The notes under the pieces are model-generated. The model saw only the letters and a list, made by a program, of their open reading frames with translations, had not been told where the DNA came from and searched no databases. Position numbers and translations under genes: made by a program. Shown here piece by piece: positions 24,361-38,621 of a stretch of 64,000 bases of DNA. The stretch is from Thermoanaerobaculia bacterium (GTDB lineage: Bacteria; Acidobacteriota; Thermoanaerobaculia; Multivoradales; Multivoraceae), in contig OY761158.1 of NCBI GenBank assembly GCA_963664405.1, positions 2,816,001 to 2,880,000 on the forward strand, written 5' to 3'. How positions within the stretch are numbered: position 1 is the stretch's first letter; each line of letters opens with the position of its first letter.

Positions 24361-25503
24361 ATGAAGGCCATCCTCATCACTACCACCGAGTTCTCGCCCT
24401 TCCGAGCCGGGATTGGCACCTACACATGCGAGATCGCTGCCGCGGCTCAGGCGCTGGGAGGCGCGGTGACGGTCTTCGCGCCGAGCTACGGGACCGACCC
24501 GGCGGATTCGGACCGACTGCGCTACCCCTTCGAGGTCATTCGTTACCCCGGTGAGACTTACGATCGGCGGGCTCTTCCGGGCCTGCTCCTCCGGCTTTGG
24601 CGAGTGGTTGGTGAAAGGCCCTGGGACCTGATCCACGCGGTCGACTGGCCGACCGTCCTGGCGCTGGGCCTGATCCGCCGACTGCGGCCGCTGGAGTACC
24701 GAGCCACGGTCTATGGCTCGGAGCTTCTCGGGGTCGTCGACTCGCTGCACGTGCGCATACTTGCCGGAGGGCGTCTCTTTGCCGCCTGCGAACGGGTGCT
24801 GGCTATCAGCGACTTCACCTCCGACCTCCTCAGCCGGCGCTGTCCTTTCGTCCAGCCCGAGAAGGTCGCGATCACACCCCTCGGCGTAGCGGAGCGTTTC
24901 TTCGAGCCGCCGGATGCGGCCGCCCGGTCGGCTGTGACGAAGCGGCTCTCGATACCTGACGACCGCCAGGTGCTGCTCACGGTGGCACGGCTGGTGCCTC
25001 GCAAGGGTCACCGAGTGGCCTTGAAGGCGCTTCGCCTGCTCCCCGGCGACGTCAAACAAGGTCTCGTCTACGTTATTGCTGGGCGGGGGGATCCTGTCTA
25101 TGAGGAAGAGCTGCGCCGACTGGCGGCCGAGACCGAGGTGCGTGTGATCTTCGCCGGCGCTGTCGGCGATGCCGAATTGGTCGCCCTCTACGGCGTTGCC
25201 GACATCTTCCTCTTACCCGGAGAGCCAGACCCCAAGAGTGTGGAGGGCTTCGGGCTGGTCTACCTCGAGGCCGCGGCGCAAGGAACGCCGGCGGTGGCTT
25301 CGCGCTTGGGTGCCATTCCCGAGGTAGTGCGCCATCAGGAAACCGGACTACTGGTCGAAGCTTGCGACCACGAGGGCTTGGCGGCGGCGCTTGCAGATCT
25401 GCTGAATCACCCGACTCGGCTCGCCGGCATGGGCGCCGCGGCACGCGAACGGGCCCGGGACTACACCTGGGAGCGATGTGCGCGCCTGAGCTATGAGCTC
25501 TGA
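24361..25503 (+). CDS. glycosyltransferase family 4, copy 1
   Basis: EFSP..GIGTY, VARLVPRKGH, EGFGLVYLEAAA. Confidence 0.92.
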   Translation: MKAILITTTEFSPFRAGIGTYTCEIAAAAQALGGAVTVFAPSYGTDPADSDRLRYPFEVIRYPGETYDRRALPGLLLRLWRVVGERPWDLIHAVDWPTVLALGLIRRLRPLEYRATVYGSELLGVVDSLHVRILAGGRLFAACERVLAISDFTSDLLSRRCPFVQPEKVAITPLGVAERFFEPPDAAARSAVTKRLSIPDDRQVLLTVARLVPRKGHRVALKALRLLPGDVKQGLVYVIAGRGDPVYEEELRRLAAETEVRVIFAGAVGDAELVALYGVADIFLLPGEPDPKSVEGFGLVYLEAAAQGTPAVASRLGAIPEVVRHQETGLLVEACDHEGLAAALADLLNHPTRLAGMGAAARERARDYTWERCARLSYEL

Positions 25504-25634
25504 GCGTCGCGGGGTGACGCTCGCTCAGACTCCTGCCTGGGTTCGCCGCGGTGCCGAGCTTGGGTCCGCTATACTGATCACGGCTCGGTGTTGACCGGCT
25601 GGCTTTATCACGGCGCGAACTGACTCCGGGCATC

Positions 25635-27900: not shown

Positions 27901-29043
27901 ATGAAGGCGATCCTCATCACCACCACCGAGTTCTCGCCCTACCGAGGAGGAATCGGTACTTACACCTACGAGATCGCTGCCGCGGCTCAGGCGCTGGGAG
28001 GCGCGGTGACGGTCTTCGCGCCGAGCTACGGGACCGACCCGGCGGATTCGGACCGACTGCGCTACCCCTTCGAGGTCATTCGTTACCCCGGTGAGACTTA
28101 CGATCGGCGGGCTCTTCCGGGCCTGCTCCTCCGGCTTTGGCGAGTGGTTGGTGAAAGGCCCTGGGATCTGATCCACGCGGTCGACTGGCCGACCGTCCTG
28201 GCGCTGGGCCTGATCCGCCGACTGCGGCCGCTGGAGTACCGAGCCACGGTCTATGGCTCGGAGCTTCTCGGGGTCGTCGACTCGCTGCACGTGCGCATAC
28301 TTGCCGGAGGGCGTCTCTTTGCCGCCTGCGAACGGGTGCTGGCTATCAGCGACTTCACCTCCGACCTCCTCAGCCGGCGCTGTCCTTTCGTCCAGCCCGA
28401 GAAGGTCGCGATCACACCCCTCGGCGTAGCGGAGCGTTTCTTCGAGCCGCCGGATGCGGCCGCCCGGTCGGCTGTGACGAAGCGGCTCTCGATACCTGAC
28501 CACCGCCAGGTGCTGCTCACGGTTGCACGGCTGGAGCCTCGCAAGGGTCACCGAGTGGCATTGAAGGCGCTTCGCCTGCTCCCCGGCGACGTCAAACAAG
28601 GTCTCGTCTACGTTATTGCTGGGCGGGGGGATCCTGTCCATGAGGAAGAGCTGAGCCGACTGGCGGCCGAGACCGAGGTGCGTGTGATCTTCGCCGGCGC
28701 TGTCGGCGATGCCGAATTGGTCGCCCTCTACGGCGTTGCCGACCTCTTCCTCTTACCCGGAGAGCCAGACCCCAAGAGTGTGGAGGGCTTCGGGCTGGTC
28801 TACTTGGAGGCAGCGGCGCAAGGAACGCCAGCAGTGGCTTCGCGGTTGGGTGCCATTCCTGAGGTAGTGCGCCATCAGGAGAGCGGCGTTCTGGTCGAAC
28901 CATGCGATCACGAGGGATTGGCGATGGTGCTGGCAGATCTTTTGCGGGACCCGGGGCAGCTCGAGAGTCTGGGCACCCTAGGTCGTGAACGGGCTCGGGA
29001 TTACACCTGGGAGAGATGTGCCCGTTTGACCTATGACCTCTGA
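27901..29043 (+). CDS. glycosyltransferase family 4, copy 2
   Basis: Same length as 24361-25503, offset 3540 bp, near-identical sequence. Confidence 0.92.
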   Translation: MKAILITTTEFSPYRGGIGTYTYEIAAAAQALGGAVTVFAPSYGTDPADSDRLRYPFEVIRYPGETYDRRALPGLLLRLWRVVGERPWDLIHAVDWPTVLALGLIRRLRPLEYRATVYGSELLGVVDSLHVRILAGGRLFAACERVLAISDFTSDLLSRRCPFVQPEKVAITPLGVAERFFEPPDAAARSAVTKRLSIPDHRQVLLTVARLEPRKGHRVALKALRLLPGDVKQGLVYVIAGRGDPVHEEELSRLAAETEVRVIFAGAVGDAELVALYGVADLFLLPGEPDPKSVEGFGLVYLEAAAQGTPAVASRLGAIPEVVRHQESGVLVEPCDHEGLAMVLADLLRDPGQLESLGTLGRERARDYTWERCARLTYDL

Positions 29044-29872
29044 GCTGAGGATACTCTTGGACCCTCTCGATCAGATGCAAGAACCACAAGAGCTTCCCGC
29101 CCGACCCATCCTCGGCACGCCGGTGGTCTTGACGGATTACCGAGGCGCGTTTGAATGCGTGTCGGCCTGGGCCAAGCTCCGCGAGCAGCCACGCCTTGTA
29201 GATGCTGCCAACACTCACGTCGTGGCGATGGCCCGCCAGCGCCGGAGCTTCTACGAAACGATGAATCGCTTCGATCTGGTCTTGCCGGATGGAATGCCTT
29301 TGGTTTGGGTCCTCAATCGGCGCTACCGCGCCCGACTCGAGGATCGGGTCTACGGTCCGACGCTCATGGAGCGCGTGTTCGATTGGTCTCAGGAGCCCGG
29401 CCATGGCCATCTCCGTCATTACCTGCTTGGAAGCAGTGACCAGATTCGTGAGAAGGCGTCCGAGACTCTTTCAAGACGCTTCCCCGCCGCCGTTATCGAT
29501 TCTGGTTATTCGCCACCTTTTGGTGGCTGGGATGCGAACGAGGACCGGGCGATCCTCGATCGGATTGCCGATTCGGGGGCCAACCTCATCTGGGTCGGCT
29601 TCGGATGCCCCAAACAGGAAGAGTTCTTGGCGCGCTTGCGGCCTCGACTCCCGGTAGGGGTGTATTTGGCGGTCGGCGCTGCCTTCGCCTTCCATGCCGG
29701 TACCGTCCCCCAGGCACCGAAATGGCTCCAGAGGATCGGGATGGAGTGGTCTTTTCGCTTGCTGATGGAGCCTCGCCGCCTATTCAAGCGCTACTTCGTA
29801 TACAACTCTCTCTTCGTTTTCTATTTGCTTCGGGACGGACTATTCGGCAGGCCGAATCGCAGTCGCGGATGA
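29033..29872 (+). CDS. WecB/TagA/CpsF family glycosyltransferase (GT26)
   Basis: PDGMPLVW, RVYGPTLM, WVGFGCPKQE, VGAAF, GMEWSFRLLMEPRRL. Confidence 0.93.
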   Translation: MTSELRILLDPLDQMQEPQELPARPILGTPVVLTDYRGAFECVSAWAKLREQPRLVDAANTHVVAMARQRRSFYETMNRFDLVLPDGMPLVWVLNRRYRARLEDRVYGPTLMERVFDWSQEPGHGHLRHYLLGSSDQIREKASETLSRRFPAAVIDSGYSPPFGGWDANEDRAILDRIADSGANLIWVGFGCPKQEEFLARLRPRLPVGVYLAVGAAFAFHAGTVPQAPKWLQRIGMEWSFRLLMEPRRLFKRYFVYNSLFVFYLLRDGLFGRPNRSRG

Positions 29873-29917
29873 GCGTTGAGCCATCGCCGGCCGAACGATC
29901 GGTTATCCTGCGCTTCC

Positions 29918-30634
29918 GTGACGAGCCGATCGCCCGATTTGGTGCTTTGCGAGGGTTCGCCGTCCTTCGTCTTGCGTCAGTACCGGGTCGGTTCGGCAAA
30001 GAACTTCGCCTACCTCCTCGTTGACTCGGCGTCCAAGCAGGCTTTCTTGGTCGATCCAGCCTGGCAGCCACTCGAGCTCTTAGACGAAAGTGCGGCCCAA
30101 GGCGTCCGGCTCTCCGGCGTTCTGCTGACTCACACTCACGCGGATCATATGGGGGGAGTGCTTCGCAGGCGATCGCTGCCAGGGGTCGGCGAGCTTTTCG
30201 AAAAAATGCGCCTGCCGATATACGTTCACCACCGCGAAGCGGACCGAGTGGTGCGCTTTTGTGGGGTGAATCCCGAGTCGGTTCGCCCGCTGTCCGACTC
30301 CGATACGGTCCCGCTCGGTTCTTCGGAGCTTGTCTGCCTGCACACACCGGGGCACAGCCCCGGCAGCGCCTGCTACCTCGCCGACGGGCGACTCATCTCC
30401 GGCGACACACTGTTCGTGCGCAACATCGGTAACGTCGAGCATACGCAGGGTGACATCGATGCGATGTATCACTCCCTCTGTCGATTGGCGGCGCTCCCCA
30501 CCGAAACCAAGATCTACCCCGGTCACGACTATGGCGACGCACCCAGCTCGACGATCGGGCTCGAGCTGAGGCAGAACGCGTATATGCGCCCGATGCAGCT
30601 CGAACAGTTCCGAATCTTGATGGGCCGCTTGTAA
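29918..30634 (+). CDS. MBL-fold metallo-hydrolase (glyoxalase II-like)
   Basis: NFAYL, THTHADH, HTPGHSPGS, SGDTLF, YPGHDY. Confidence 0.9.
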   Translation: MTSRSPDLVLCEGSPSFVLRQYRVGSAKNFAYLLVDSASKQAFLVDPAWQPLELLDESAAQGVRLSGVLLTHTHADHMGGVLRRRSLPGVGELFEKMRLPIYVHHREADRVVRFCGVNPESVRPLSDSDTVPLGSSELVCLHTPGHSPGSACYLADGRLISGDTLFVRNIGNVEHTQGDIDAMYHSLCRLAALPTETKIYPGHDYGDAPSSTIGLELRQNAYMRPMQLEQFRILMGRL

Positions 30635-30658
30635 CAAGTGAGATATAGTTGCTTGTTG

Positions 30659-31042
30659 ATGAGACGCTCCCGCCTTTTCGCCAGCACTCTTACGCTGGTC
30701 TTTGCGATGCTGGCTTCGCTTGCACCGCCGGATCTGGCGTGCTGCAGCGGACTGGCGGAGATGCATGAGGTTCAGGTCTCTGCGATGGACTGCGCCGAGA
30801 GCATGGACTGTTGCCAGCCGGGCAACGTCAGCCCTGCGGCTCAGCGCTGTTGTAGTGGAGACGAGAGTCGCACCAACACTCCCAGCCGCGTCGCGACCCT
30901 ACGAGGGTTGCCGAGTGATGTCAGCGCTGAGCTGGCGATATACGGACAAGGGGGGGCCGACTCGGCCTTCAGACGGCCGCTGTCTGATCCTCCATTCCCA
31001 CTCGAGCCTCTCTTCCGTCTGCACTCGGCACTCTTGATCTAG
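30659..31042 (+). CDS. Cys-rich exported leader protein upstream of the metal-efflux operon
   Basis: Signal-peptide-like N-terminus, three CC pairs plus one Cys, C-terminus PPFPLEPLFRLHSALLI. Confidence 0.7.
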   Translation: MRRSRLFASTLTLVFAMLASLAPPDLACCSGLAEMHEVQVSAMDCAESMDCCQPGNVSPAAQRCCSGDESRTNTPSRVATLRGLPSDVSAELAIYGQGGADSAFRRPLSDPPFPLEPLFRLHSALLI

Positions 31043-31121
31043 CGCTCTCCTGAGACGAAACGCCTCTGCGGAGCCGGCGTTCGGTTCCGCGGGAACGAAT
31101 CTCTGTCTTGTGGAGGAGTGC
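31042..31121 (+). promoter_or_regulatory. SD-sequestering stem-loop between leader and tolC
   Basis: GCGCTCTCC/TGAGAC (31042-31056) pairs with GTCTTG/GGAGGAGTGC (31105-31121); inner stem 31066-31076 with 31082-31092. Confidence 0.65.
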
Positions 31122-31122
31122 A

Positions 31123-32475
31123 ATGCCGAAAGTGACGGCCGTTGTCGGTTCTTATCTATGCGTTTGCGTGACAGCCCTGTGGCCGGCGGCGGCTCGTGAG
31201 CTGGATGCGAGTGAGACTTCGCTCAACGAGCCCGATCTCGAAGCGGAGATCCTCGAGCTCGCTGCTCCCCTCGATCGAGAAGCTCTTGTCGCTGCGGTTC
31301 TGAACAGGAACAAGGCGATCGAGGCGGCGCGGAGAGCGTGGCTGGCCAGCGCGGAGGTCCCCAGCCAAGCTCGCGGCCTTCAAAACCCGAGGCTCTCGTA
31401 TTCCTTCGCTCCGCAGAGTGTCGGCTCGGACAGCGTCCGCTATGGGCAGCGTATCGATTTCTCGCAGCGCCTTCCCTATCCCGGCAAGAGGCGGTTGCAG
31501 CGAGAGATTGCTGAGGCGGTAGCTGCGACTGCCGGTCACGATCTCGAGGCGATTCGTCTGAGCCTCGCCACGGTTAGCTCCCTTCTCTACGACGACTACT
31601 ACGTCGTCGAGCGCGCGATCGAGATCAATGAGGAGTACATTGAGCTACTGGCCTCGTTTCAGCGTATCGCGACCGCTCGCTATGCCGCCGGTGAGGAGTC
31701 GCAACAGGCGCCACTACAAGCCGAGGTAGAAGCCGCGCACCTGCTCCACGAAGGCGTACTGCTAGAGACCGAGCGGGCGATTCTGGTGGCAAGGATCAAT
31801 ACTCTTCTGCATCGCAGGCCGAGTGAATCGCTTCCTCCACCACCCAGGGAGTTGGCGCCCCCGGCGGCGCGAGCGGCTGAAGAGCGGAGCCTCGAGGAGG
31901 AGGCCATCGCGACGAGACCCGAGATACAGAGCGTCACCTCTACGCTGGAAGCTCGTCGGCTCGAGATCGAGCTCACCGAGCGTGCCTTTCGCCCCGACTT
32001 CGAAGTCATGGGCTCCTACAGCACGATGTGGAACCAGAGCGAGCATCGCGCCATGGTCGGAGCCGGCATCAACCTTCCGATCTACCGCAGCAAGCTGCGC
32101 GCTGCGAAGGCCGAGGCGGAAGCTCTCCTCGGAGTCATCGAGAGCGAGCGCGAAGTGCTCATCGATCGCGTCAGGGCCGAGGTCGCCATCGTCGCTCTAC
32201 TGCTCGAGGAGGCGGAGCACGTCCTCACACTCTTTCGGTCTCGTCTGCTTCCCGCCGCCGCCGATCAGACCTCCGCGGCACTTGCCGGGTTTCGCACCGG
32301 CCAGAACAGCTTTCTCTCCCTGATCGAGGCCGAGCGCAATCAGCGCACGGTTCGTCTCGACTACGAGCGAGCGAGGGCCGACGTTCACCGGCGCCTTGCC
32401 GAGCTGGATGGGGCATTGGGGAGGTCGCCGGATGCCGAGAGTCGTGACCAGCCTTCTCGAGGAGATCAGCCATGA
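31123..32475 (+). CDS. TolC/CusC family outer membrane efflux protein
   Basis: Signal peptide, QRLPYPGKRRL, ARYAAG..SQQ, RPDF, INLPIY; GGAGGAG RBS. Confidence 0.9.
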   Translation: MPKVTAVVGSYLCVCVTALWPAAARELDASETSLNEPDLEAEILELAAPLDREALVAAVLNRNKAIEAARRAWLASAEVPSQARGLQNPRLSYSFAPQSVGSDSVRYGQRIDFSQRLPYPGKRRLQREIAEAVAATAGHDLEAIRLSLATVSSLLYDDYYVVERAIEINEEYIELLASFQRIATARYAAGEESQQAPLQAEVEAAHLLHEGVLLETERAILVARINTLLHRRPSESLPPPPRELAPPAARAAEERSLEEEAIATRPEIQSVTSTLEARRLEIELTERAFRPDFEVMGSYSTMWNQSEHRAMVGAGINLPIYRSKLRAAKAEAEALLGVIESEREVLIDRVRAEVAIVALLLEEAEHVLTLFRSRLLPAAADQTSAALAGFRTGQNSFLSLIEAERNQRTVRLDYERARADVHRRLAELDGALGRSPDAESRDQPSRGDQP

Positions 32476-34580
32476 ACCATCCAACGAAGATCGCTGCCGG
32501 TGCCTTTTTGCTTGCGACTCTCAACGTCTTGATCGCTTGTAGCGACGGTAGACAGCCGCCGGGTGAGCCGAGCGCGTCGAGCCGTGTGGGAGGGCTCGAT
32601 GTGCGTCTGTGGCTGGACCCCGACCCGCCGAAGCAGCAAGGACTCTTGTGGCTCGAGCTCCGCGATGAGGATGGGGGTGCCGTCGACGCTGCCCAAGTCG
32701 ATGTGGGCTGGCTGATGCCGGCGATGGGCGCGATGCCCGAGATGAGAGGGAAAGCGGAGATCGAGGAGGTCGGGTCGGGTCTTTACCGTGCGCAGCTCGA
32801 CCTACCGATGAATGGGTCGTGGACTCTCCCGGTCAACATTCGCACCTCTCGGACTTCTGTCATCGCCGAGTACACGCTGAATGTGGGTAGCGCGGGCCTA
32901 CGCGAAGTTGGGGCGCACGCTCTCAACCAAGGCTCGCCGGAGGGCGTGCAGCCGCCGACCGCAGAATACCCCCAGGTCGTGCTCGACGCCCTGCGCGAGA
33001 CGTTGCGGGTGTACGAGGAAGTCCGCACCCAATTGACCCAGGACAGGATGGACGGCCTTTCCACCAGAGCCGAGCGATTGGCACAGAGCTTCGTCACTGC
33101 GCGCTCCGCGCTGGGAAACGAAGGGGCTCCAGCGAGCCTCGCCCTGGTCGACGAAGGGGAGCGTTCATCGTCGTCACTGGCCGCCGTCGATGACCTCGAG
33201 ACGGCTCGGGTCGCTTTCGGCGAAGTGAGCCGCTCGCTCTTCGCTCTCGCGGCGGCAGATCCTCGCCTGGTCGAAGGATGGCAGAGCTTCTCGTGCCCGA
33301 TGACGTCTACCTTCCCCAGGTGGATGCAGCCGGCCGGCGAGTTGGAGAATCCCTATATGGGCCAGGCGATGCCGGGTTGCGGCTCGCCCGCCGACTGGAG
33401 CCTTCCACAGCCGGAGGGCGTCGCTGAGCTCGAGGCCCACGCACAGCACGTTCATGGAGGTCTCGACGAGGGCGACGAGATCGCTCACTACACCTGTTCG
33501 ATGCACCCATCGGTAAAGCGCGGGGCCGCCGGGACCTGTCCGATCTGCGCGATGGATCTTGTTGGCGTGACGCGCCGAGAAGTCGAGACCGGAACCTTCG
33601 TCGTGAGTGCAGAGCGTCGACAGGAGATCGGAGTCCGAACGGAGGCAGTGGGCACACAGGCGATGAATCTCAAGATCCGTGCGGTAGGGAGGGTGACCTA
33701 TGACGAGACGTTGCTTTCCGAGGTGACGGTGAAGGTCGGTGGCTTTGTAGGGCGGCTCTCGGTCGACCAGACTGGCCAGTTGGTGCGCCAGGGCGAGGTT
33801 CTCTTCGAGCTCTACAGCCCCGAGCTCTACGCCTCGCAGGAGGAGCTCCTGGCTGCGCTTGCGAGTCAGCAAGCCGCGCGATCCACCCAAGCGCCCGATC
33901 GTGCCGACTATCTGGTCGACGCCGCGCGTCAGCGCCTTAGGCTCTGGGATCTGAGCGACTCGCAGATCGAGGCGATCGCGGAGAGCGGGCAGCCGCTGAG
34001 GGATCTGCCGATTCTTTCCTCCTCTTCGGGCTACGTGGTCGAGAAGATGGTTGTGCAGGGTTCCTCGATAAATCCTGGGCAGACTCTCTATCGCATTGCC
34101 GGTCTGGATCGAGTGTGGATCGAGGCCGAGGTCTACGAGTCGGATCTGCCGCTGATCGAGGTCGGCCAGCTGGCCGAGATCTCCCTTCCTTACCTTGGGG
34201 GAAAGCGCTTCGAGGGCCGAGTCGCCTTCGTCTATCCGTACCTCCATGCCGAGACTCGCACTGGCACCGTCCGTATCGAGTTGGCCAACCCTGGGCTGGA
34301 GCTCAAGCCGGAGATGTATGCCGATGTGAGCTTCGCCATCGAGCGCGGCGAGCGACTCACGGTGCGAGATGAGGCGGTGCTCTATGCCGGTGAGCGACGT
34401 CTCGTCTTTGTCGACCTGGGGGAGGGCCGCCTACAGCCCCGCGAGGTGGAGATCGGCGTTCACGCCGGCGACCGCTATGAAGTGCTCGCGGGCCTCGAAG
34501 TGGGCGAGAAGGTCGTCGTTTCGGGGAACTTTCTGATCGCTGCCGAAAGCCGGCTCAAATCGGCCACGGAGAAATGGTGA
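32472..34580 (+). CDS. cusB: CusB-type RND periplasmic adaptor with extra N-terminal metal-binding domains
   Basis: LIAC lipobox, MPAMGAMPEM, CPM...ENPYMG..MPGCG, YTCSMHP..CPICAMDL, LYSPEL, SGNFLIAAESRL. Confidence 0.85.
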   Translation: MNHPTKIAAGAFLLATLNVLIACSDGRQPPGEPSASSRVGGLDVRLWLDPDPPKQQGLLWLELRDEDGGAVDAAQVDVGWLMPAMGAMPEMRGKAEIEEVGSGLYRAQLDLPMNGSWTLPVNIRTSRTSVIAEYTLNVGSAGLREVGAHALNQGSPEGVQPPTAEYPQVVLDALRETLRVYEEVRTQLTQDRMDGLSTRAERLAQSFVTARSALGNEGAPASLALVDEGERSSSSLAAVDDLETARVAFGEVSRSLFALAAADPRLVEGWQSFSCPMTSTFPRWMQPAGELENPYMGQAMPGCGSPADWSLPQPEGVAELEAHAQHVHGGLDEGDEIAHYTCSMHPSVKRGAAGTCPICAMDLVGVTRREVETGTFVVSAERRQEIGVRTEAVGTQAMNLKIRAVGRVTYDETLLSEVTVKVGGFVGRLSVDQTGQLVRQGEVLFELYSPELYASQEELLAALASQQAARSTQAPDRADYLVDAARQRLRLWDLSDSQIEAIAESGQPLRDLPILSSSSGYVVEKMVVQGSSINPGQTLYRIAGLDRVWIEAEVYESDLPLIEVGQLAEISLPYLGGKRFEGRVAFVYPYLHAETRTGTVRIELANPGLELKPEMYADVSFAIERGERLTVRDEAVLYAGERRLVFVDLGEGRLQPREVEIGVHAGDRYEVLAGLEVGEKVVVSGNFLIAAESRLKSATEKW

Positions 34581-37500
34581 TGGGTGCGGGCGACTCCCAA
34601 GGGCCGGTCGCGAGTGTCATTGGCGCTAGTGCTCGCAACCCACTGCTCACCATTCTGCTGGCTGGCGCGCTCGGAGTCTGGGGCTGGTATGCCCTGACTC
34701 ACGGTCCTCTGGACGCGATTCCGGATCTTTCGGATGTGCAGGTGATCGTCTTCACCGAGTGGCCGGGCCAGAGCCCGGATCTGGTGGAGGACCAGATCAC
34801 CTACCCGATCTCGAGCACTCTTCTAGCCGCTCCCCGGATCAAGTTCGTGCGCGGACAGTCCTTCTTCGGCCTTTCCTTCGTCTACGCCATCTTCGACGAC
34901 GGAACCGATATGTACTGGGCTCGCTCGCGCGTGCTCGAGTATCTGAGCGAGGTGCGGGGGGAGCTGCCGGCGGGAGTCGTCCCGACCCTCGGCCCCGACG
35001 CCACCGGCGTCGGCTGGGTCTTTGAGTACGCCCTCGTCGACCGCACCGGCCAGCACGATCTGCAAGAGCTGCGCAGCCTGCAGGATTGGAACTTGCGTTT
35101 CGCCCTCGAGAGTGTGCCAGGGGTTGCCGAGGTCGCTTCGATCGGCGGCTTCGTCAAGCAGTACCAGGTCACTCTGGACCCCAACAAGCTGGTGGCCTAC
35201 GGCATCCCGGTCGGCCGGGTGATCGAGGCGGTCAGGGAGGCGAATCAGCAAGTCGGGGGAAGAGTGCTCGAGATCTCCGGCCACGAGCATATGGTCAGAG
35301 GTAGAGGTTATGTCAGCGACAGAGCCGACCTCGAGCTCGCTCCGCTCGGTGTCTCCGAGGGCGGGGTTCCGATCACCATCAGAGATGTGGCCGAGGTGAC
35401 TATCGGGCCCGATATGCGACGCGGCCTGGCGGAGCTCGATGGCCGGGGTGAGGTGGTCGGCGGTATTGTGGTGATGCGCTATGGGGAGAACGCGCTGCGG
35501 GTGATCGAGGCGGTCAAGGCACGACTCGCCGAGATCGAGCCGGGTCTCCCCGCCGGTGTCGAGGTGGTTACCACCTATGACCGCTCCGGCCTCATCGAGG
35601 ACTCGATCGACACGCTGCGGGAGACGCTGCTCCAGGAGATGGTGGTGGTGAGCGTCGTCATTTTTCTTTTTCTACTGCATGCCAGAAGCGCCCTGGTGCC
35701 GATCATCACCTTGCCGCTGGCGGTTCTGCTCGCCTTTGTACCGATGTTCTATCAGGGTCTGACCATCAACATCATGTCGCTCGGCGGCATCGCGGTCGCA
35801 ATCGGAGCGATGGTCGACGCCGCGGTCATCCTGATCGAGAACATCCACAAGAAGCTCGAGGACCCCAGGAGTGGGACTCGCCGCCTCGAGCTCGTGATCG
35901 AGGCCATGCAAGAGGTCGGACCGACCATCTTCTTCTCTCTCCTCGTCATCACCGTCTCCTTCTTGCCGGTCTTCACCCTCGAGGGGGTGGAGGGCCGCCT
36001 GTTCAAGCCGCTCGCCTTCACCAAGACCTACTCGATGGCCTTTGCCTCGGTACTCGCTGTCACCCTGACCCCGGCACTGGCCGCGCTTCTCGTTCGAGGA
36101 CGAATCCGCGGCGAGCGGAGTAACCCGATCAACCGTCTGGTGGTCGCCCTCTATGTTCCGATCGTTCGCTTGGTGGTGCGCTTCCGCAAGACGACCATCC
36201 TGGTCGCCATCGTTCTGGTGGCCGTTACTGTGCCCGTCTTCCTGGGCCTGAGCACTGAGTTCATGCCACCTCTCAACGAGGGAGCGATCCTCTACATGCC
36301 GACGGCGCCCCCCGGCATGTCGATCACTGAGGCCGCTTCGATTCTGCAGTCGATGGACCGACAGCTCGCCAGCTTCCCCGAAGTCGAGCGGGTGTTCGGA
36401 AAGATGGGGCGCGCGCGCACCGCCACCGACTCGGCCCCGATCGGCATGGTCGAGACCGTGGTGACCCTGAAGCCAAAGGAAGAGTGGCGACCGGGTTTGA
36501 CCTGGGATGCACTGGTCGCGGAGATGGACGAGAAGTTGCGCTACCCAGGGATGCCTAATGTGTGGTGGATGCCGATCCAGACCCGCACCGAGATGCTCTC
36601 TACCGGCATTCGCAGTCAGTTGGGGATCAAGGTCTTCGGTGACGACTTGACCGAGATCGAGCACACCGCGATCGCCATCGAGCAGGCAATTGCGACCATA
36701 CCCGGCACCCGCAGCGCCTTTGCGGAGCGCTCCGCCGGCGGCTTCTTTGCCGACTTCACGGTAGACCGTGTCGCGGCGGCCCGTTACGGACTTTCGGTGG
36801 CCGACGTCAACGAAGTGGTGATGACTGCGATCGGAGGAATGAAGGTCTCAGAGACGATCGAAGGTCGCGAGCGCTACCCGATCAGTGTCCGCTACGCTCG
36901 CGAGTTTCGCGACTCGCCAGAGGCGCTTCGACGGGTGCTGGTGGCGACTCCGAGCGGCGCCCAGGTTCCGCTCGGGCAGCTCGCCACTTTGAGTTTCACC
37001 ACCGGCCCGCCGATGATTCGTAGCGAGGACGGCAAGCTGGTGGGCTTCGTGTTTGTCGATCTGGCAGGCCGGGCGATCGCCGACTATGTCGAAGAGGCTC
37101 GGGCCGTTGTAGCCCGTGAGGTGGATGTTGCGCCCGGCACCCGCATCGAGTGGGCGGGCCAGTTCCTCTATCTGGAGCGGGCGAAGGAACGTCTCAAGAT
37201 CGTCGTACCGGTCACTCTTCTCCTGGTCTTCCTGCTTCTCTACTTCCATACCGCTTCGGTAATAGAGACCGGCATCGTCCTCTTGGCCGTTCCCTTTTCC
37301 GTGGTCGGGGCGGTGTGGCTCCTCTGGTACCTCGACTACAACATGTCGGTGGCGGTGTGGGTCGGGCTCATCGCCCTCGCCGGTCTCGATGCCGAGACCG
37401 GCCTCGTAATGCTTCTCTATCTCAAGCTCGCCTGGCGGAGCCACCGGGCCGAAGGAGCCGCGCTCGCCTTCGACGACCTCAGAGAGGCTATCGTCGAGGG

Positions 37501-37720
37501 CGCGGCACGGCGCATTCGACCGAAGCTGATGGCGGTGTCGACGACTCTGCTCGGGCTGGCGCCGGTGATGTGGTCCAGCGGTACCGGAGCCGACGTGATG
37601 AAGCGGATCGCTGCGCCAATGGTCGGGGGGCTTGTGACATCCTTTGCTCTGCAACTGACGGTTTATCCAGCGATCTTCGCAATCTGGAAGGCACGAGACC
37701 TGGGTCGGTCGGATCTCTAG
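34574..37720 (+). CDS. cusA: CusA/CzcA family heavy-metal RND permease (Cu/Ag type)
   Basis: LDAIPDLSDVQVI, LGPDATGVGWV, IAIGAMVDAA-like motif, EFMPPLNEG..LYMP, MKRIAAPMVGG. Confidence 0.93.
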   Translation: MVMGAGDSQGPVASVIGASARNPLLTILLAGALGVWGWYALTHGPLDAIPDLSDVQVIVFTEWPGQSPDLVEDQITYPISSTLLAAPRIKFVRGQSFFGLSFVYAIFDDGTDMYWARSRVLEYLSEVRGELPAGVVPTLGPDATGVGWVFEYALVDRTGQHDLQELRSLQDWNLRFALESVPGVAEVASIGGFVKQYQVTLDPNKLVAYGIPVGRVIEAVREANQQVGGRVLEISGHEHMVRGRGYVSDRADLELAPLGVSEGGVPITIRDVAEVTIGPDMRRGLAELDGRGEVVGGIVVMRYGENALRVIEAVKARLAEIEPGLPAGVEVVTTYDRSGLIEDSIDTLRETLLQEMVVVSVVIFLFLLHARSALVPIITLPLAVLLAFVPMFYQGLTINIMSLGGIAVAIGAMVDAAVILIENIHKKLEDPRSGTRRLELVIEAMQEVGPTIFFSLLVITVSFLPVFTLEGVEGRLFKPLAFTKTYSMAFASVLAVTLTPALAALLVRGRIRGERSNPINRLVVALYVPIVRLVVRFRKTTILVAIVLVAVTVPVFLGLSTEFMPPLNEGAILYMPTAPPGMSITEAASILQSMDRQLASFPEVERVFGKMGRARTATDSAPIGMVETVVTLKPKEEWRPGLTWDALVAEMDEKLRYPGMPNVWWMPIQTRTEMLSTGIRSQLGIKVFGDDLTEIEHTAIAIEQAIATIPGTRSAFAERSAGGFFADFTVDRVAAARYGLSVADVNEVVMTAIGGMKVSETIEGRERYPISVRYAREFRDSPEALRRVLVATPSGAQVPLGQLATLSFTTGPPMIRSEDGKLVGFVFVDLAGRAIADYVEEARAVVAREVDVAPGTRIEWAGQFLYLERAKERLKIVVPVTLLLVFLLLYFHTASVIETGIVLLAVPFSVVGAVWLLWYLDYNMSVAVWVGLIALAGLDAETGLVMLLYLKLAWRSHRAEGAALAFDDLREAIVEGAARRIRPKLMAVSTTLLGLAPVMWSSGTGADVMKRIAAPMVGGLVTSFALQLTVYPAIFAIWKARDLGRSDL

Positions 37721-37759: not shown

Positions 37760-38621
37760 GTGAGCTCGACTTGGGAGATCGGCGTGAGAGTGGGCGCCTT
37801 CGCCGTGGTCTTTTCTCTGGTGGCGCTGTGGGAGATTCTCGGCGCGCGCCGTGCGCTCAGCTGCTCCCGCCGCCAACGCTTGGTTCGCCAACCTGGGGTT
37901 GGTGGTCGTGGACACGGTGGTGGTGCGCGTCCTCTTTCCACTCACTCTGGTGGGTGTTGCGATGACGGCCGAGGCACGCGACTGGGGCCTCCTTCGGCAG
38001 CTTTCGGTGCCCTTCCCGGTGACGCTCGGTGTGTCGGTGGTTCTTCTCGACTTCGTCCTCTATCTGCAGCACCTGCTCTTCCACGCCGTGCCGGCACTGT
38101 GGCGCCTCCACATGGTGCACCATGCCGATCTCGACTTCGACCTCACCACCGGCCTCCGCTTCCACCCTGTTGAGATCGCCCTTTCGTTGGCGCTCAAGAT
38201 GGGAGTCGTCCTGCTGCTCGGCGCACCGCCGTTGGCCGCGCTCGTCTTCGAGGCGCTGCTCAACGGCACCGCGCTCTTCAACCACGGCAATGTGTCGTTG
38301 CCGGTCAGGCTCGAAAGGGTGACGAGGTGGTTGTTAGTGACTCCAGACATGCATCGAGTGCATCACTCGGTCGCGCGCCCAGAGACCAACAGCAACTTCG
38401 GCTTCTGTCTGTCGTGGTGGGACCGCCTCCTCGGCACCTATCGACAGAGCCCGAAGTCGGGTCACGACGGCATGCAGATCGGTCTTGACCACCTTCAAGA
38501 TCGCAGCCATCAGTCTCTGCCCTGGCTCCTCGCTCTCCCTCTGCGCGGCGACACAGGCTCTTATCCCTTTGGCTTCGGCAGGAAAAGACGACTCAGGAGA
38601 GGCCGAGGGAGAATAGGCTAG
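37760..38621 (+). pseudogene. sterol desaturase family protein, +1 frameshift at ~37880
   Basis: N-terminus (..ALWEILGARR..RQR) and body (WFANLGL, HLLFH, HMVHH, HRVHH, NSNFG) are in different frames, joined by CGC-T-TGG. Confidence 0.78.

Follow-up and report, generated by a model that had tools for sequence, protein, structure and literature searches.

We analysed a 64,000-nucleotide (nt) stretch of contig OY761158.1 of a Thermoanaerobaculia bacterium (positions 2,816,001 to 2,880,000; hereafter the window), in which a short gene for a Cys-rich protein, here called the leader, precedes the genes of a CusCBA-type efflux pump. This report concerns the leader, the tail at its C-terminus and the hairpin that separates it from tolC, the first pump gene.

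The leader and the pump operon

The leader is followed after an 80-nt spacer by tolC, cusB and cusA (Table 1). Named relatives of the window TolC come from Thermoanaerobaculia/Acidobacteriota. The transporter reached 1132 bits against E. coli CusA and 545 against ZneA, and it retains the periplasmic Met triad of the Cu(I)/Ag(I) site, taken here to be M573/M623/M672; judged by its sequence, the pump is a CusA-type, Cu(I)/Ag(I) heavy-metal efflux system of the resistance-nodulation-division family (HME-RND). The adaptor carries its YtkA domain at the N-terminus in addition to the heavy-metal-binding domain, and the two perhaps replace CusF.

Table 1. Features of the leader-pump locus (window coordinates).
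Feature	Position	Strand	Basis or remark
Putative sigma70 -10 hexamer TATAGT	30644..30649	+	ends 9 nt before the leader ATG
Leader gene, SilD/CusD-type, CutF-like	30659..31042	+	ATG 30659, TAG 31040-31042, 127 aa
Signal-peptide-like N-terminus, about residues 1-22	30659..30724	+	hydropathy and predicted helix 3-20
Cys-rich putative metal/redox-sensing segment	30740..30853	+	C28C29, C45, C51C52, C64C65; Met35/43/49, His36
PP at -17/-16 of the leader	30989..30994	+	site of the PP of the relatives' RAPP/RGPP; here SDPP, without Arg-Ala/Gly
Stop-anchored tail PLFRLHSALLI and TAG, candidate termination-arrest element	31007..31042	+	conservation; predicted helix 117-126
Anti-Shine-Dalgarno 5' arm, begins within the stop codon	31042..31058	+	minimum free energy fold
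Inner 12-bp hairpin, 31065-31076/31082-31093, three G-U pairs	31065..31093	+	minimum free energy fold
3' arm with tolC Shine-Dalgarno GGAGGAG 31112-31118	31102..31121	+	minimum free energy fold; pairs with 31042-31058
TolC/CusC-like outer-membrane factor	31123..32475	+	Pfam OEP; ATG 31123
CusB-like adaptor with YtkA and heavy-metal-binding domains	32472..34580	+	domain matches
CusA-type RND transporter	34574..37720	+	TIGR00914 above cut-off

The original prediction, made from the letters of the DNA, had the leader at the head of a CusCBA-type operon, and this arrangement is conserved before pumps of the Cu(I)/Ag(I) type in homologs. It had also stated that no CusRS, CueR or CsoR regulator gene is adjacent. 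No member of these families was found among the 70 window open reading frames (ORFs) scanned (10 plus 60 of 137 candidates, the others being mostly antisense overlaps or already scanned), and the homologous loci have no conserved neighbouring regulator.

Conservation of the leader protein

The leader is a real gene, as had been proposed from its signal-like N-terminus and its Cys residues (at 28, 29, 45, 51, 52, 64 and 65); a database protein is 98% identical to it and has the identical start (30659). A GTG at 30638 was rejected as the start: the -10 box lies downstream of it, and the database protein agrees with 30659. Across 18 pairs of related leaders, identity was 96% at Cys, 83% over the last 11 residues and 51% in the linker, and synonymous changes were spread along the whole ORF. 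Because the Cys and the tail are conserved over the linker while synonymous changes occur throughout, the leader is under selection at the protein level.

The pair C64/C65 is invariant among 44 aligned leader sequences, and the window leader ends in DPPFPLEPLFRLHSALLI. From the last CC to the C-terminus there are 64 residues in the window leader and 56-82 in 70 leaders (median 69); the linker is thus free in sequence and not in length. A basic n-region with a hydrophobic core was found by hydropathy in the window leader and in 67/67 intact homologs, which is not independent evidence because start codons were partly picked for it.

No family was found for the window leader or for SilD of Cupriavidus metallidurans, described below, in Pfam and NCBIfam, and a search with the single window sequence found only a near-copy, 1 of 29 candidates. 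A profile of 44 leader sequences matched 2,656 clusters (50% identity) at E ≤0.001 and 383 at 1e-10. On a profile built without it the window leader scored 31 bits, where 500 shuffled sequences reached 9.9 at most.

Homologous loci

By alignment of TolC, 79 genome loci were gathered, mostly from Acidobacteriota and Myxococcota/delta-proteobacteria; eight came without upstream DNA, and counts of leaders refer to the other 71. In 67 of these an intact leader of 108-150 aa, with signal peptide-like N-terminus, Cys pairs, variable linker and stop-fixed hydrophobic tail, stands before tolC. Among the other four, one leader runs off the contig, two carry 5' damage or a frameshift and one has only the last few codons. 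After removal of near-duplicates (10 of 72, leaving the 62 of the arm swap below) and of the cut or damaged L045, L052 and L074, a dereplicated set of 59 tolC leaders was obtained, to which the counts out of 59 refer.

An adaptor gene was found in 77/79 loci and CusA in 71/79, several contigs ending early. The two nearest upstream ORFs of 66 loci were heterogeneous, with matches to CsoR (2), P-type ATPase (7), an ECF sigma factor (3) and a receiver domain (1) and none to MerR; in four Myxococcus loci a divergent hybrid kinase lies upstream. Since the leader is kept while the genes further upstream vary, it is the fixed first gene of the pump locus.

The tail also occurs in loci of Sphaerotilus, Polaromonas, Variovorax and C. 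campinensis, and leaders of Methylophaga and Paraburkholderia end in WRPP instead. Among six distant plasmid tolC loci, one has a tail-type leader, two have leaders with another ending and three have none. The Methylomonas plasmid locus L084 (1761-2225) holds an unannotated tail-type leader ending PIRYRFCTFLN-stop, 161 nt before tolC, and two Ca. Manganitrophus plasmids (L080 1876-2220, L085 1527-1871) hold an unannotated Cys-containing, predicted exported ORF before tolC that ends ASPLFFRPY-stop. L091 and L093 are CusCBA-type operons whose first-gene leaders end in WRPP, with the last Cys 47-54 residues from the end; they combine a shorter, CutF-like architecture with the same kind of pump.

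Some single loci were also recorded. In L006 (7790-7808) the leader is gone save its last codons, in L052 (1600-2049) it is damaged and adjoins a transposase, and in L074 (7184-7634) it is frameshifted; these are either natural mutants or assembly errors. Myxococcus xanthus AM003, a tractable species, has a tail-type leader (L071 7292-7699), and the leaders of L023, L066 and L073 are directly preceded by a second RND transporter gene.

A two-part C-terminus

The statistics given here for profile matches refer to the best 150 of the 2,656 matching clusters, for which genomic context is not given. In these the C-terminus has two parts, a RAPP/RGPP element followed by a tail that abuts the stop codon and is the more conserved of the two. 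RAPP/RGPP was found in 86/150, 14-26 residues from the end and mostly 19-20 (start at -20/-19 in 73), with P at -17 in 114/150 and at -16 in 91/150. The consensus of the tail is P-[LI]-[FY]-x-x-[HN]-C-S-[LFY]-L-I at the stop, with Pro at -11 in 133/150 and Leu at -2 in 149/150, and the profile match stops at most one residue short of the C-terminus in 150/150. In the 59 tolC leaders, R[AG][PG]P occurs in just 6 and PP at -19..-14 in 21. By these alignments the tail is an addition to the RAPP-type element that has outlasted RAPP in many lineages. The tail motif first proposed was too narrow: PL(F/Y)xLHxxLLI occurs in just 4/59 leaders and 0/150 profile matches, whereas the relaxed end [LFYI][LR][ILNTSVR]-stop is present in 54/59 and 143/150. 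No description of a C-terminus in which a stop-anchored tail follows a RAPP/PP relic at 16-20 residues from the end was found in the literature searched.

Prc/Tsp protease favours non-polar C-termini, and the tail could be a C-terminal tag for such a periplasmic tail-specific protease and not an arrest element. It is indeed non-polar and strictly terminal, and CutF of Rhodobacter capsulatus is described as degraded after export (PMC9973294). The conservation, however, extends over 11 residues and fixes the positions of a Pro, an aromatic residue and a His/Asn, Arg stands at -2 in 18/59 leaders, and a tag would leave the hairpin at the stop codon unexplained; we give this explanation hardly any credence.

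The last sense codon of the tolC leaders ends in C or T in 59/59 cases, compared with 146/324 background genes; Leu as last codon is CTC or CTT in 19/19 leaders, and no TAA stop occurs among the 59. CusD of C. metallidurans is an exception to the C/T ending, which could reflect a preference for the P-site tRNA at termination.

The intergenic hairpin

The proposed burial of the tolC Shine-Dalgarno (SD) sequence was reproduced by the minimum free energy (MFE) fold, which pairs 31042-31058 with 31102-31121 (z = -2.46; 4/200 shuffles equally stable); the inner stem, given before as 11 bp, has 12. When arms were swapped between loci, cognate arms paired at -20.2 and non-cognate arms at -15.0 kcal/mol, with 19/62 loci in the best 5%. 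Control gene pairs of the same loci gave -16.2 and -16.1 kcal/mol and 3/58 in the best 5%; the gene calls of the controls came from a rough script, and related loci do not count as independent. Since the window alone stands at rank 0.049, the strength of this result comes from the homologs. A closing helix of at least 6 bp was found in 42/59 spacers, as against 12/34 control intergenic regions and 391/1160 shuffles, and it uses all pair types outside the SD core. The two arms therefore vary together across loci; hairpin covariation had been named in the original prediction as a test.

Pairing with the tolC ribosome-binding site (RBS) peaks +3 to +14 past the leader stop in the 59 leaders. The footprint of a ribosome was taken to reach 14 nt past the first P-site base. 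The median energy for opening the RBS in 59 loci was 13.5 kcal/mol on free RNA, 14.3 with the P-site at -17 and 9.5 with the P-site at the last codon; a ribosome on the last codon lowered it by at least 3 kcal in 32/59 loci and a ribosome at -17 in 0/59. This agrees, as far as geometry goes, with the original idea that a ribosome at the leader end frees the tolC RBS.

The same result bears on a mechanism in which the metal-sensitive pause lies at RAPP/PP, 16-20 codons before the stop, and keeps the pump off; as copper relieves arrest in CruR (Bordetella pertussis), metal would release the ribosome to the stop, opening the hairpin and turning the pump on, and the tail, serving for spacing and dwell, would convert a switch that shuts an importer off into one that turns an exporter on. 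A ribosome at -17 fails to open the RBS in 59/59 loci, as such a switch would have it, and the frequency of RAPP/RGPP among the best profile matches, its presence in CusD at -16 and the arrest of CruR at the RAPP prolines in vitro (PMC12992588) point the same way. So do the distances from the last Cys, which are about 46-47 residues to PP in the window, 46-50 to the RAPP Arg in CusD and 45 in CruR and CutF. The tail and hairpin nevertheless persist in tolC leaders where RAPP-like elements are as rare as stated above, and the window leader has no RAPP Arg. The slope of the Cys spacing, 0.58, falls between the model values of 0 and 1 and favours neither model. We consider this mechanism unlikely on its own; it is compatible with the explanation preferred below, and the two are not exclusive.

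No terminator-like site for intrinsic termination was seen in the leader-tolC intergenic region, and Rfam gave no match at gathering score in the window and none in 30600-31250 even at E ≤10. Control mainly by Rho-dependent termination after the leader, as for CruR, with the hairpin as a polymerase pause site, would fit an excess of C over G in the last 90 nt of the leader (59/59, mean skew 0.23) and a cus regulation that published work sees at the RNA level. The skew, however, is mostly driven by amino acids (third-position C share 0.55 versus 0.47 and 0.52 elsewhere), selection for rut sites appears weak, and the anti-SD arm pairs specifically with the SD side. We regard termination by Rho as the main control as very improbable.

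Upstream of the leader, a -35-like or -10-like box directly before the start, at a spacing like that of the window hexamer, was found in 37/59 leaders, 0/59 tolC starts and 3-4/59 shifted windows, and the median SD energy was -2.7 at leaders versus -7.2 at tolC; a consensus promoter scan that needed both boxes found none in the window. The pattern suggests that the leader has a promoter of its own and that its mRNA is leaderless or nearly so.

A GTGTG(C/T)CC-like word is present in 23/59 leader-tolC spacers and 4/58 control spacers and absent from the window, the pattern having been picked after the alignment was seen. It often lies 14-21 nt past the stop at an internal loop (e.g. L011, L015, L033, L035, L054, L061, L078) and is possibly a protein-binding or tertiary element.

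SilD and CusD as possible relatives of the leader

Besides the window leader, the sole new full-length profile match among 8,924 ORFs was SilD (silDCBA, pMOL30) of C. metallidurans. SilD and CusD (cusDCBAF, chromid) have about 130 aa and an N-terminal export signal, as predicted for the window leader; their last Cys lies 62-67 residues from the end, and a PP is followed by P/H-x-x-L-H-C-C-F-R-I/T-stop. As in the window type, a hairpin runs from the stop to the cusC/silC SD, here over a 72-nt spacer, and a CusCBA-type pump lies 3'. SilD ends in RPPPRPLAILHCCFRI-stop, followed by the 72-nt hairpin over the silC SD (z -3.5); the CusD-type chromid ORF ends in RAPPPPHAILHCCFRT-stop, with a hairpin as at silD. 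The identity of CusD rests on motifs quoted in PMC10304878 that fit an ORF of strain FDAARGOS_675. The two proteins differ from the window leader in a CxxxC-type motif in place of CC pairs, and CusD has a true RAPP. The tail, a Cys distance of 62-72, the stop-to-SD hairpin and the CusCBA pump, by which we define the type here in the absence of a curated family, are all found at the window, and by these shared features and the weak profile scores its leader is best filed with SilD/CusD.

According to PMC10304878, cusD alone is expressed when no metal is added to the medium, a two-component system is lacking nearby, and periplasmic Cu(I) induces cus; cusCBAF is raised by Cu, with cusD excepted (PMC7563307). 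The cus regulator is stated in the literature to be unidentified. This pattern fits a leader role of CusD. CusD has itself been read as a Cu(I)-binding lipoprotein and chaperone with CopRS as suggested regulator (PMC10304878), so that in the window, too, the leader protein might be a periplasmic Cu(I) chaperone or buffer after export, with the hairpin doing no more than couple translation and a distant two-component system exerting the metal control on transcription. Any ribosome that finishes the leader would melt the anti-SD arm, and a putative CopR-box-like motif lies before one silD start (PMC7563307). On the other hand, the AlphaFold model of the window leader is mostly coil without a folded domain (pLDDT 63, pTM 0.33), a chaperone needs neither a length-fixed, sequence-free linker nor a stop-fixed tail, and cusD is not co-induced with cusCBAF (PMC7563307), though listed with it under one promoter entry. 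A chaperone role appears improbable to us.

Proposed mechanism and points against it

The leader probably switches the pump on during its own synthesis by way of the stop-codon hairpin. We rather favour the view that the window leader is a sensor acting in cis, from the SilD/CusD branch of the CutF-like proteins, and that a metal-prolonged dwell of the ribosome at its end frees the tolC RBS; the export, metal binding and arrest of the leader and the direction of the switch are what we infer here. A housekeeping promoter would supply a constant leader-cusCBA mRNA, on which the intergenic hairpin, computed in structure and seen to co-vary, would hold the tolC RBS shut. The leader would be exported co-translationally. 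Its Cys cluster lies 62-72 residues before the end; judged by this spacing, it should already be through the tunnel and translocon and in the periplasm once the ribosome arrives at the last codons. Periplasmic Cu(I)/Ag(I) would then alter the folding or disulfides of the Cys cluster and thereby the pulling force, and the ribosome would linger on the stop codon, holding the hydrophobic tail in its tunnel and covering the anti-SD arm. Once the arm is covered, tolC and then the overlapping cusB and cusA would be translated. Without metal the leader would be released, the hairpin would re-form and the untranslated downstream mRNA would be lost by polarity or decay. The common arrest element would be the tail rather than the PP.

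Several observations weigh against this view. The Cys spacing is not clearly anchored to the stop, since its slope against RAPP position is 0.58 where the two models predict 0 and 1. The opening energy of the window RBS falls from 18.9 kcal/mol on free RNA to 13.3 with a ribosome at the leader end, so the opening is just partial, 13.3 kcal/mol being still needed; across loci the drop is below 3 kcal in 27/59, and the closing helix is absent by MFE in 17/59. When 30 nt of coding sequence were included in the fold, tail codons often became the partner of the SD, and a stop-proximal partner exceeded 0.5 in just 33/72. RNAalifold gave no consensus structure on a 17-sequence MAFFT alignment; because the arms are too diverged for such an alignment, the swap and per-locus tests were used. 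The leader is damaged with tolC present in 3/71 loci. SilD scores weakly on the leader profile (17.8-19.6 bits, shuffle maximum 9.9), and because these scores are too low, convergence of SilD and the window leader is possible. In PMC7563307, silDCBA is not induced by acute Cu, and the published cus data, which come from RNA measurements and transcriptional fusions, are also explained by a distant CopRS.

A wider reading can be offered only tentatively. The tail P-[LI]-[FY]-x-x-[HN]-[CS]-x-[LFY]-[LR]-[ILN]-stop may be an undescribed and very widespread termination-arrest motif, gated across the membrane by periplasmic Cu(I)/Ag(I) and added behind an older RAPP pause, which would flip the import-off logic of CruR to export-on; it might be the missing CusCBA regulator in several Gram-negative phyla, with CusD and SilD as sensors and not chaperones. 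Such a stop-codon tail arrest under periplasmic metal, if true, would be a ligand-gated, transmembrane termination arrest and would explain the induction of heavy-metal pumps that have no regulator. The literature searched yielded no account that treats the tail as an arrest motif or that tests CusD or SilD for a leader function, and supplementary logos of PMC9973294 may already show the tail for the SilD/CusD clusters.

Neighbouring genes

Two flanking genes were rejected as parts of the system, namely the upstream metallo-hydrolase (29876-30634), matched in just 2/79 loci, and the downstream fatty-acid hydroxylase (37851-38621), matched in just 1/79. Elsewhere in the window, 24361-25505 and 27901-29045 form a 1,145-nt duplication of 94% identity that spans two GT4 glycosyltransferase genes.

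Comparison with known systems

Among annotated families, HYC_CC_PP (NF047658), DUF8199, DUF6769 and DUF6660 resemble the window leader in length and CC/PP layout. Matches of HYC_CC_PP-type families were sub-threshold and confined to 2/67 homologs, one nearly full length; on NF047658 (cut-off 28 bits) the window leader scored 0, the best homologs 14.7 and 15.9 bits, and none of 144 sequences matching the leader profile matched it. The nearest named Atlas clusters to the window leader lie at 0.93-0.94, with DUF8199 on 47% of its cluster. No literature on these four families in a leader role was found.

Exported Cys-rich leaders before copper genes are known, and we found just CutF and CruR dissected, both with prolines at the very end. 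CruR, of the DUF2946 family, is the first gene of a copper operon; it has an export signal, as predicted for the window leader, and like it a Cys motif some 45 residues ahead of a Pro pair. It differs in its CXXC, in a RAPP three residues from the end, in a copper-off logic acting on an importer, in Rho termination and in a 162-nt spacer (PMC9426467). The window leader has neither CxxC/CxxxC nor RAPP (SDPP instead), and DUF2946 gave no Pfam match for it or 67 homologs, the presence of PF11162 in the Pfam copy being unconfirmed.

CutF is closer in logic, being an exported Cys-containing uORF product with an SD-hiding stem-loop, copper-detoxification genes 3' and a proposed metal-on response, as we propose here (PMC9973294; 10.1101/2025.02.05.636593); the stem-loop over the downstream SD is the feature of the CutF mechanism present at the window. 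In CutF the last residues are PEPEGPPPRL, so that just two follow the PPP (PMC8456105), whereas the PP of the window leader lies 16-17 from the end, CxxxC is absent and an 11-residue tail is added. For the list of CutF-like proteins in Ozturk 2023 (PMC9973294), the window leader is within the limits of <150 aa (127 aa) and of a same-strand gene within 1000 nt (tolC 80 nt downstream), and its PP at -17/-16 falls outside the filter of PP within 15 residues, which 16/59 tolC leaders and 96/150 profile matches pass. In that work CusC (OEP), CusA and CusB are the commonest neighbours of CutF-like leaders, and SilD and CusD are labelled in the network. The idea of CutF-like leaders before CusCBA is thus largely anticipated there. 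What stands of the proposed analogous switch with a different arrest motif is its likeness to the exported-leader type; the motif is not simply different, since RAPP/RGPP is frequent among profile matches and PP is kept in the window.

The tail-bearing leaders define a second, testable leader architecture, for which C. metallidurans cusDCBAF is a ready model. A precedent for the proposed manner of arrest is given by the stop-codon arrest peptides (PMC10987492), in which conserved residues abut the stop and arrest occurs with the stop codon in the A site, as proposed here; those peptides have different sequences, stand before sec genes and do not sense metals.

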